Assembly: GCF_051903065.1 (NCBI RefSeq) | Contig: NZ_CP178439.1 | Source of the DNA: Escherichia coli | GTDB taxonomy: Bacteria > Pseudomonadota > Gammaproteobacteria > Enterobacterales > Enterobacteriaceae | Strand: one strand, 5' to 3' | Length of the DNA stretch: 64,000 nucleotides | Shown here: piece after piece, positions 35,846-37,470 of the stretch | Position numbering within the stretch: position 1 is the stretch's first letter | How the letters are laid out: each line of letters starts with the position of its first letter | Made by a program: the position numbers and the translations under genes | Notes under the pieces: generated by a model | The model's input: the letters and a program-made list of their open reading frames with translations, nothing else | The model's database searches: none | What the model was told of the DNA's origin: nothing

Positions 35846-36048
35846 CTTGAATCTATCCGGCGTCTGAATGGGATTTTATTCCCGCGCCTTGATGAGTTCC
35901 GCGCCTGATGAACCTCCAGAAAATATACGGCTTCAATGAGCCTTTCCGTTTTACAGGTTCCTCAACAGGCCGGTGGGCCGTTAGTATCATCAATATCAGT
36001 ATTCGCAAAACCAGATCAGTAATTCTTTAAACCGGTGTATTTCTGCCG

Positions 36049-37053
36049 TTATGCTACATAAGTTTGCTGTCGTGCCGTTAGGGCCCAGGCTATTCTGGCC
36101 AGCTTGTTTGCCAGAGCACAAGTGACGACAAAGTTGCTTTTCCGGCACAGTAAATCCCTGACCCAATCGGCCAATTTGCCAGACTGGTGTTCCAGTTTTT
36201 GTATGAATACCCTGGCACATTGAACCAACAAAGTTCGGATCTTTTTATTACCTCGCTTACTAATTCCCAGCAATGTCGTCCTACCTCCCGTGCTGTACTG
36301 CCGAGGTACAAGCCCTGTTGCCGCCGCAAAGTCACGGCTGCTGGCGTACTGCTTCCCGTCGCCAATCTCAGTTGAAATAGTACTCGCTGTCAGTGTTCCG
36401 ACGCAGGGAATGCTCAGCAAGCGCTGTCCAACCTCATCTTCGTCCAACTTTCGTTTCAACTGGGATTCCAAATCTTTAATCTGCTCAACAAGATAGTGAT
36501 AATGCTGTTGTAATTTCAGCAATAACTGGCTGAGGTAAAGAGGCAAACTACTGTCCTCAAGAATGGTACTCAGTCGGCTAATAACGGCAGCTCCTCGGGG
36601 AACGCTAATGCCAAATTCCAGCAGAAAAGCATGCATTTGATTGGTTGTTTTTACCTTATCCTGAACCAGGGATTCACGGACACGATGCAGAGCCCGCATT
36701 GCCTGCTGAGATTCCGTTCTGGGCTGCACAAAACGCATAGACGGACGCGATGCAGCTTCACAAATAGCTTCGGCGTCGACAAAGTCGTTTTTATTGCTTT
36801 TAACGAACGGGCGGACAAATTGTGGTGATATCAGCTTTGGGGAATGCCCCAACTCTTCCAACTTGCGTGCCATAAAGTGAGAACCGCCACAGGCTTCCAT
36901 TGCGATGGTTGTAGCGGGGCATGTCGCCAAAAATTCGATCAACTTTGGCCGGGTAAATTTTTTACGGTAAACAGCCTTCCCGCGACGATCCTGGCAATGA
37001 ATATGGAAAGAGTTTTTACCCAGATCGATACCAATGAGCGCAATGTTTTCCAT
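36049..37053 (-). CDS. IS110-family transposase (IS5075/IS4321-like)
   Basis: 334-aa protein MENIALIGIDLGKNSFH...; element appears to end near 37127 next to CACGCTAAG, and the other end appears removed by IS26. Confidence 0.7.
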   Translation of the reverse strand: MENIALIGIDLGKNSFHIHCQDRRGKAVYRKKFTRPKLIEFLATCPATTIAMEACGGSHFMARKLEELGHSPKLISPQFVRPFVKSNKNDFVDAEAICEAASRPSMRFVQPRTESQQAMRALHRVRESLVQDKVKTTNQMHAFLLEFGISVPRGAAVISRLSTILEDSSLPLYLSQLLLKLQQHYHYLVEQIKDLESQLKRKLDEDEVGQRLLSIPCVGTLTASTISTEIGDGKQYASSRDFAAATGLVPRQYSTGGRTTLLGISKRGNKKIRTLLVQCARVFIQKLEHQSGKLADWVRDLLCRKSNFVVTCALANKLARIAWALTARQQTYVA

Positions 37054-37470
37054 GATAGTTCTCCGAATGAAAGCCTGTCCTCAGCATAGTACCGGGAAGG
37101 AGGGAGTGACCATCTCATTAAATATCCCACGCTAAGACTGTTTGCTGTACAAATTGATGTCGACAGCGCGTAATGACCGTAGTCACAGGAACAGCTAATG
37201 GTATTGAAAATTGACCCGTAACTGAAACAGCATCGACCCAGCAGCGATGATGTGAACCTTGAAGAACTTTGGGTGCAGCCTCTTATAGCAGCAGTTTTTG
37301 CTGTTGTTCCCTTAATAAGATATGCCCTGTAAATACCCTCATGGCTTCATTTATAATACTATTATTAGCTTACTACGACTCAGTCTAGAAACAGCATCAT
37401 CTCCACTGGGGCTAAAACACCACTTACCGCATGCTTTCATATAACCAGATTTCAGCCCCCTTGAAAGGGA

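Follow-up and report, generated by a model that had tools for sequence, protein, structure and literature searches.

A 64,000-nt stretch of Escherichia coli DNA (contig NZ_CP178439.1, hereafter the window) carries at positions 35846..37120, on the minus strand, a copy of the insertion sequence (IS) IS4321 which has lost its right (3') end. We explain this locus as IS4321 inserted in the terminal inverted repeat of a Tn3-family transposon of the Tn21 subgroup, which had been reduced to a stub earlier and whose outer part was later removed together with one end of the IS by IS26. This explanation is very probably correct. The clipped IS4321 itself, a scar in a multidrug-resistance plasmid region, is of an already known and ordinary kind; it is its target that calls for a different reading than the one found in the literature.

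The copy in the window comprises positions 1..1275 of an element of 1,327 bp, 52 bp being gone, and it matches the unclipped copy in plasmid pQnrB4_020042 (L002) to 100%, as does the entire segment 35846..39110. The full element of pQnrB4_020042 starts with TAATGAG followed by ATGGTCACTCCC and ends with GGGAGTGACCAT followed by AGA. It is 99.5% identical to IS4321R and 97.1% to IS4321L, both from plasmid R751, and 93.4–93.7% identical to copies annotated as IS5075. The initial annotation had proposed an element of the IS5075/IS4321 type; because of the 99.5% identity to IS4321R versus 93.4% to IS5075 it can be specified, by alignment, as IS4321 and not IS5075. Its left end (37102..37120) consists of the terminal TAATGAG (37114..37120) and the 12-bp left subterminal inverted repeat ATGGTCACTCCC (37102..37113), and the same left end is present in R751, in a Phytobacter Tn3-family transposon (L017), in an IS5075 beside merR (L028) and in pABWA45_3 (L030). 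The transposase gene is intact (36049..37053, minus strand, 334 aa). Its open reading frame (ORF) matches the Pfam domains DEDD_Tnp_IS110 (PF01548, 74.6 bits, E 1e-20) and Transposase_20 (PF02371, 72.3 bits, E 4e-20) and thus encodes a DEDD-type transposase of the IS110 family, IS1111 group; in records identical here it is annotated as WP_021546935.1, an IS4321 family transposase. Full-length siblings possess 1,327 bp, both subterminal repeats, TAATGAG at the left and AGA at the right, a set of features that is incomplete in the window copy. The segment 35846..37136 has more than 5,000 matches in plasmids, which fall into two bands of identity, at least 99% and 90–95%. Within the 64-kb window no second copy of IS4321 or IS5075 was found.

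The left end of IS4321 abuts the inner 16 bp of a 38-bp terminal inverted repeat of the Tn21 subfamily (AATATCCCACGCTAAG, 37121..37136, plus strand), the outer 22 bp of which are lost. Joining both flanks of IS4321 in pQnrB4_020042 restores the full repeat, GGGGTCCGCTTGGAAAACGGAAAATATCCCACGCTAAG, which has the 38 bp, the GGGG start and the ACGCTAAG end of the subfamily. In the initial annotation only the 9-mer CACGCTAAG (37128..37136) had been recognized as the inner part of such a repeat, and the IS boundary had been placed at 37127. The repeat is real, its remnant amounts to 16 bp and not to 9, and the boundary had to be moved to 37120/37121, seven bases before the 9-mer. Taken alone, the 9-mer is insignificant and was rejected as stand-alone evidence: it occurs once in the window, 0.61 matches are expected there by chance, and 44 of 100 shuffled sequences contain at least one. 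Therefore, its position and register in comparison to other insertions were used as the test. We compared eight insertions in the orientation of the IS, namely the left and right copies in R751, those in L017, L028, pABWA45_3 and pQnrB4_020042, and two further ones (L009, L014). The motif CTTAGCGTG is located at the identical distance from the TAATGAG end in six other IS4321 or IS5075 copies (R751 left and right, L017, L028, pABWA45_3, pQnrB4_020042). In all eight insertions the left flank consists of 16 nt ending with CTTAGCGTGnnnAwT, and the right flank begins with TTCCGTTTTC and runs to CCCC. The left flank in the window, CTTAGCGTGGGATATT (37136..37121), fits this common register exactly, and thus coincidence, which might have explained the 9-mer, does not explain its placement. 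The IS was inserted, in its single orientation, at the fixed position that had been anticipated for a 38-bp Tn21-family repeat; the outer flank from TTCCGTTTTC to CCCC is read in the siblings only.

The rebuilt 38-mer is identical to a repeat in the E. coli plasmid pE32-3 (38/38) and differs at one position from a repeat beside ars genes on the yadA-bearing virulence plasmid (pYV) of Yersinia enterocolitica (37/38); this repeat belongs to an arsenic-resistance Tn3-family element which we take to be Tn2502. More distant are the repeats of the Phytobacter transposon (33/38) and IRtnp of Tn21 (31/38). When one variable base was allowed, the 38-mer was found in 32 stretches of representative genomes, including Photorhabdus, Pantoea, Erwinia, Serratia, Xenorhabdus and Shewanella. 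As a separate observation, the draft genome of Photorhabdus cinerea DSM 19724 (L031–L042) holds at least 17 copies of the 38-bp repeat, many of them about 90 nt from contig ends and some paired at a distance of 143–221 bp, which points to a Tn3-family element that has multiplied, or to a miniature derivative, at which the assembly breaks.

Next to the repeat lies the very end of a transposase gene. On the minus strand of 37133..37180 the last 15 codons of a Tn3-family tnpA, RSLRAVDINLYSKQS, are followed by a TAG stop inside the repeat (within CTTAGC), hence the gene is directed outward and ends inside the repeat. Eleven of the 15 residues equal the C-terminus of the intact 994-aa TnpA of the Phytobacter transposon. 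At the DNA level, the repeat together with about 40 bp of the stub is 85–87% identical to tnpA ends. The identity to 18 tnpA ends from other genomes amounts to 28–32 of 46 nt and falls to chance level after about 46 nt. Stop codons upstream close the frame of the stub, and a tblastn search of 37100..39110 with the 994-aa TnpA found only the last 11 residues. Since no more tnpA was found by tblastn and the similarity is lost after about 46 nt, we regard this element as a stub and not as a transposon. It appears to have been about 85 bp long already before IS26 acted, made up of the 38-bp repeat and some 45 bp from the 3' end of tnpA, and reaching to about 37180. No tnpA body, resolvase gene, res site or partner repeat was found with it. 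Likewise, neither a second inverted repeat nor a 5-bp duplication was found, the far side of the neighbouring gshB block being cut by IS1294 and IS26. The initial annotation had inferred the end of a lost Tn21-family transposon. The end is genuine and carries its tnpA stub; the transposon behind it would have been lost before, and not through, the clipping by IS26.

A second 38-mer of the Tn21 type, CTTAGCGTAGGATGTTTTCCATTTTCCAAGTGGAACCC, is present on the plus strand at 42380..42417; it faces the repeat on the gshB side, is identical to it at 33 of 38 positions and is free of IS4321. As a partner end it was rejected, as it sits in an IncX1-derived stretch (98.5% identical to pN16S074-2) which is contiguous in that plasmid. 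Two of its differences fall within the stretches that are matched by the putative guide RNA described below.

Comparison of the occupied and the empty site gives further insight into the origin of the target. A 629-bp chimera across the joined flanks of pQnrB4_020042, from which IS4321 had been removed, is 100% identical to a sequence in p87912, and the uninterrupted repeat site occurs in 117 plasmid records. Thus, insertion proceeded without a target duplication at a site whose empty form is precisely known, as seen in the full sibling; the window keeps one flank only. In pABWA45_3 the 38-bp repeat beside gshB holds IS5075, whereas IS4321 is found at the identical position in pQnrB4_020042, L009 and L014. 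Because two different elements occupy the same site, the repeat beside gshB has been hit at least two times independently.

In relatives the 38-bp repeat adjoins the iterons of IncN plasmids. Ordinary IncN plasmids match the upstream part of the pQnrB4_020042 query over positions 1 to 227–230 and the repeat begins at position 228; the IncN homology ends at the outer G of the repeat. In pZS50 the iteron array carries on past the point where the repeat starts in pQnrB4_020042. Since the homology stops where the repeat sets in and the iteron array of pZS50 runs on, the outer edge of the repeat reads as a true transposition-type junction inside the IncN iterons.

The right end of IS4321 was lost to an IS26 copy, the sixth in the window (35026..35845, minus strand, 820 bp), as the initial annotation had proposed. 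It is the right-hand IS26 of an IS26-aph(3')-Ia-IS26 unit (33026..35845), has exact 14-bp terminal repeats (GGCACTGTTGCAAA) at 35026 and 35832 and a transposase ORF at 35078..35800 (minus strand), and thus shows both the length and the repeats of IS26 (IS6 family). It directly adjoins position 1275 of IS4321; the missing 52 bp include the right 12-bp subterminal repeat and the terminal AGA. The flanks of this IS26 copy, ATAAATCG and CTTGAATC, do not constitute an 8-bp duplication. Elsewhere in the window, a search found neither the 52 bp that IS4321 lacks nor the lost 22 bp of the repeat nor any IncN iterons, so the ends absent here do not lie intact at another place of this stretch. As there is no 8-bp duplication and the missing parts are nowhere in the window, the arrangement fits a deletion or recombination mediated by IS26 rather than simple insertion. 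On comparison with the siblings, the loss to IS26 here would cover 52 bp of IS4321, the part of the repeat beyond the insertion point (22 bp) and the iterons along with ΔrepA. The exact junction between IS26 and ΔIS4321 occurs in at least 89 plasmid records, mostly of the IncHI2 type from Salmonella and E. coli, hence it can be regarded as an inherited scar. In pTBMCR401 and pR18.0877_278k this junction is preceded by different DNA, whereas in the window the aph(3')-Ia unit lies directly to its left; since the DNA before the shared junction differs, the IS26 copy has served as a recombination point. A count of intact right-end junctions was not used, since the coverage threshold of 80% could be passed without the iteron part.

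On its inner side the stub is followed by about 290 bp of unassigned DNA (37181..37470), which extends to the stop codon of gshB and for which similarity was found only within the gshB block in plasmids. The gshB gene (37471..38907, minus strand; the longest ORF extends to 38934) codes for a eukaryotic-type glutathione synthase of 478 aa (WP_000105383.1) with the Pfam domains GSH_synth_ATP (E 8e-61) and GSH_synthase. The block ends with a 114-bp piece (38997..39110) left over from the oriIS end of the IS91-family element IS1294, a remnant named in PMC6288184 and PMC6052338, and with the first 301 bp of a truncated IS26 (39111..39411, plus strand), whose terminal repeat lies at 39111 and which forms the right edge. 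The remnant alone occurs in about 2,000 further plasmid records, and in pf77-55 the same 114-bp stretch is located directly past the 3' end of an IS91-family transposase gene. The nearest relatives of the gshB product outside plasmids are found in Salmonella (80% identity), Aeromonas and Yersinia (77–78%). No protein between 80 and 100% identity was found among 5.8 billion proteins; the cluster members that were read are all from Salmonella, E. coli or Klebsiella, and the donor of the plasmid gene is not in the databases searched. The segment 37472..38996 is 80% identical to a chromosomal island of Salmonella, the homology ending at 38996. There the homologue (L020/L021) sits among arsenic-resistance genes, and the one of Yersinia (L022–L024) beside chromate and arsenic transport genes. 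That homologues with 77–80% amino acid identity occur in arsenic and chromate clusters hints at a role of the eukaryotic-type glutathione synthase in metal stress.

How the IS found its target may be encoded in the IS itself. Excision of IS1111-group elements yields circles, and an RNA derived from the non-coding region at their 3' side, called seekRNA or bridge RNA, guides the transposase; in this RNA a top-strand match lies 5' of a bottom-strand match, the two overlapping at the insertion point (PMC11187229; PMC11208160). Of the 255 nt of this region in IS4321, the part from the end of the transposase gene to the cut is kept in the window (35846..36048, minus strand). It contains, in RNA sense, AAAACGGAAA (35943..35952, minus strand), a putative top-strand match of 10 nt that could pair without mismatch with TTTCCGTTTT on the top strand of the target, immediately outside the insertion point, and 16 nt downstream (3') of it AUAUUUUC (35919..35926, minus strand), a putative bottom-strand match of 8 nt that equals the target top strand across the insertion point. 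Their matches overlap in the target. In the predicted fold both stretches lie on two sides of an internal loop, AAAACGGAAA on the 5' side, closed by a small hairpin. Both are kept in the clipped copy, the region being cut 52 bp from the end of the IS. Within the last approximately 215 nt (35846..36060) IS4321 and IS5075 differ at a single position, compared to about 6.4% over the whole element, a conservation consistent with a constrained non-coding RNA. The order of the putative matches and the 3' location are the same as in the IS1111 systems ISEc11, ISKpn4 and ISPa11, and IS621 for the IS110 group; from these similarities we infer a putative guide RNA in IS4321.

From all these data the following history can be proposed. 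A Tn3-family transposon of the Tn21 subgroup, with a repeat of the type located beside the ars genes of the Yersinia virulence plasmid, would have set the 38-bp repeat of its tnpA side directly against an IncN iteron. It would then have shrunk to the repeat and about 45 bp of tnpA, becoming joined to the approximately 290 bp of unplaced DNA and the glutathione synthase gene, with IS1294 and IS26 bounding gshB on the far side. Later IS4321 may have inserted into the repeat, 16 bp from its inner end, in its single orientation and without duplication, guided, by analogy to other IS1111-group elements, by the RNA from its 3' non-coding region. Finally, by a deletion or recombination, IS26 would have come to stand in place of everything from the 52 terminal bp of IS4321 through the outer 22 bp of the repeat to the iterons and ΔrepA. 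What remains would be a fixed scar with an intact transposase gene, the left end and a putative part of the target guide. As the right subterminal repeat and the terminus are gone, the copy should not form a circle junction, for which the sequence AGATAATGAG is predicted in intact IS4321, and should be unable to excise as a circle or to transpose.

Several points weigh against this history. A parent transposon with such a tnpA 3' end was not found: an exact 28-mer of the stub is unmatched in 100,044 representative genomes, and even the best tnpA ends share just 28–35 of 46 nt. Neither the opposite end of the transposon nor its 5-bp duplication can be recovered, and therefore an insertion at the iteron is indistinguishable from an adjacent deletion. 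As for the guide, the predicted RNA fold is no better than that of shuffled sequence (z = -1.2), no Rfam family matches the region, and a scan of the full IS gave only a chance match to a small nucleolar RNA (E 0.75).

One might suppose instead that the target is a chance sequence downstream of the IncN iterons which merely resembles a repeat and is tolerated by IS4321 and IS5075, without any relic of a transposon. The lack of a tnpA body, resolvase, res site or partner repeat would agree with this, as does the interpretation in PMC6052338, where the IS insertion "downstream of iteron II" was read as a specificity "not limited to 38-bp TIR" (terminal inverted repeat). However, a chance sequence would hardly be identical over 38 of 38 positions to the pE32-3 repeat and over 37 of 38 to the one of the Yersinia ars element, nor would it be expected at transposon ends in other genomes, where it was found in 32 stretches. 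In addition, 15 in-frame codons of the TnpA C-terminus follow, with the stop inside the repeat as in intact elements, and the IncN homology breaks precisely at the outer base of the repeat. This alternative is thus very improbable and close to refuted. A different question is whether gshB was cargo of the same Tn21-subfamily transposon, in which case an internal deletion would have taken tnpA, tnpR and res and left the last 45 bp of tnpA beside gshB. The gene does lie on the inner side of the repeat, where the initial annotation had put it. Homologues of it are found in islands for resistance to arsenic and chromate, among named elements the repeat is closest to that of an arsenic-resistance transposon on the Yersinia pYV plasmid, and repeat, stub, spacer and gshB are always found together, in about 300 plasmid records. 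But in no record is gshB inside a complete transposon, the homologues at the Salmonella and Yersinia loci examined have no Tn3-family genes beside them, no relatives of the 290-bp spacer are known, and a second repeat cannot be sought because IS1294 has cut the far side. We therefore consider this origin possible, yet doubtful. Since gshB stands where tnpA should be, the status of cargo cannot be claimed, and its place on the inner side can so far be taken as a physical one.

Another possibility concerns the activity of the remnant, which might supply transposase and guide RNA in trans to other IS4321 or IS5075 copies or ends in the cell. The remnant retains an intact transposase ORF and the putative target-matching stretches in the 3' non-coding region; moreover, seekRNA and transposase of related IS act in trans in experimental systems (PMC11187229). 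On the other hand, the transposase promoter in the IS1111 group is reported to arise solely when the circle junction is made (PMC11187229), a junction that the clipped copy should not form, the 3' part of the RNA may be clipped as well, and there is no other IS4321 or IS5075 in the window. Such a supply in trans appears unlikely. More far-reaching, and rather improbable, is the combination of two ideas: that repeat, tnpA stub and gshB are the remains of an undescribed Tn21-subfamily transposon whose cargo, perhaps derived from a metal or arsenic-resistance island, was a eukaryotic-type glutathione synthase, and that the 3' region of IS4321 is a natural guide RNA for Tn21-type ends. If this were true, gshB could persist on fosA3-bearing and other multiresistance plasmids by providing extra glutathione for glutathione-dependent resistance enzymes, and a guide RNA for Tn21-type ends could be read directly from the sequence of the window.

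Returning to the reading of an IS4321 within a stubbed transposon end, most of its components are known from elsewhere. IS4321L and IS4321R, which flank Tn4321 in the IncP plasmid R751, have the same left end, insertion position and orientation as the copy in the window, but the latter, devoid of the last 52 bp with the right subterminal repeat and AGA, should be a dead remnant. IS5075 shares length, ends, target and insertion position with IS4321 and differs in its sequence. A segment ΔrepA-iterons-gshB-ΔIS1294, with or without IS4321 or IS5075, has been described as the "IncN1 segment" in IncHI2, IncN1-F33:A-:B- and pABWA45_3-like plasmids (PMC6288184, PMC6052338). Its gshB, the 114-bp IS1294 remnant and the IS26 boundary are identical in the window, whereas ΔrepA and the iterons are replaced by IS26 here. 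Neither paper describes the insertion site as a genuine end of a transposon that carries a stub of tnpA. We argue, on the sequence comparisons presented here, that the site "downstream of iteron II" is such an end and does not reflect a relaxed specificity of IS5075. The same papers assign gshB to the IncN segment. In ordinary IncN plasmids, however, nothing of this block is present past the iterons, which argues that gshB would not belong to ordinary IncN backbones. The arsenic-resistance transposon of the Yersinia pYV plasmid is related by its repeat (37/38) and, when 40 bp of the tnpA end are included with the repeat, by 87% identity; compared to it, the lineage of the window as sampled has only about 85 bp and neither a tnpA body, a resolvase, ars genes nor a second repeat.

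The main value of this result is a correct annotation, as the block recurs as a marker in IncHI2, IncN and F33:A-:B- resistance plasmids. For gshB neither an origin from the IncN backbone nor from transposon cargo should be assumed. The different states of the site, that is empty, occupied by IS4321 or IS5075, or clipped by IS26, are handy lineage markers. These are refinements of annotation only, and they leave the view of IS110/IS1111 biology unchanged.

Some further observations concern the surroundings. At the break of the truncated IS26 on the right edge of the gshB block begins a segment (39412..40660) with a gene for a ramA-type AraC-family efflux regulator and a DUF1158 gene, annotated so in identical plasmids. 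A chromosomal origin of this segment is suspected; if carried on a plasmid, ramA could influence resistance by efflux. No direct 8-bp duplication flanks any of the eight complete IS26 copies in the window. The right flanks of the two copies at 25590..26409 and 53318..54137, CTTCATCA and TGATGAAG, are reverse complements of each other, a signature left when IS26 has inverted the DNA that lies between both copies.

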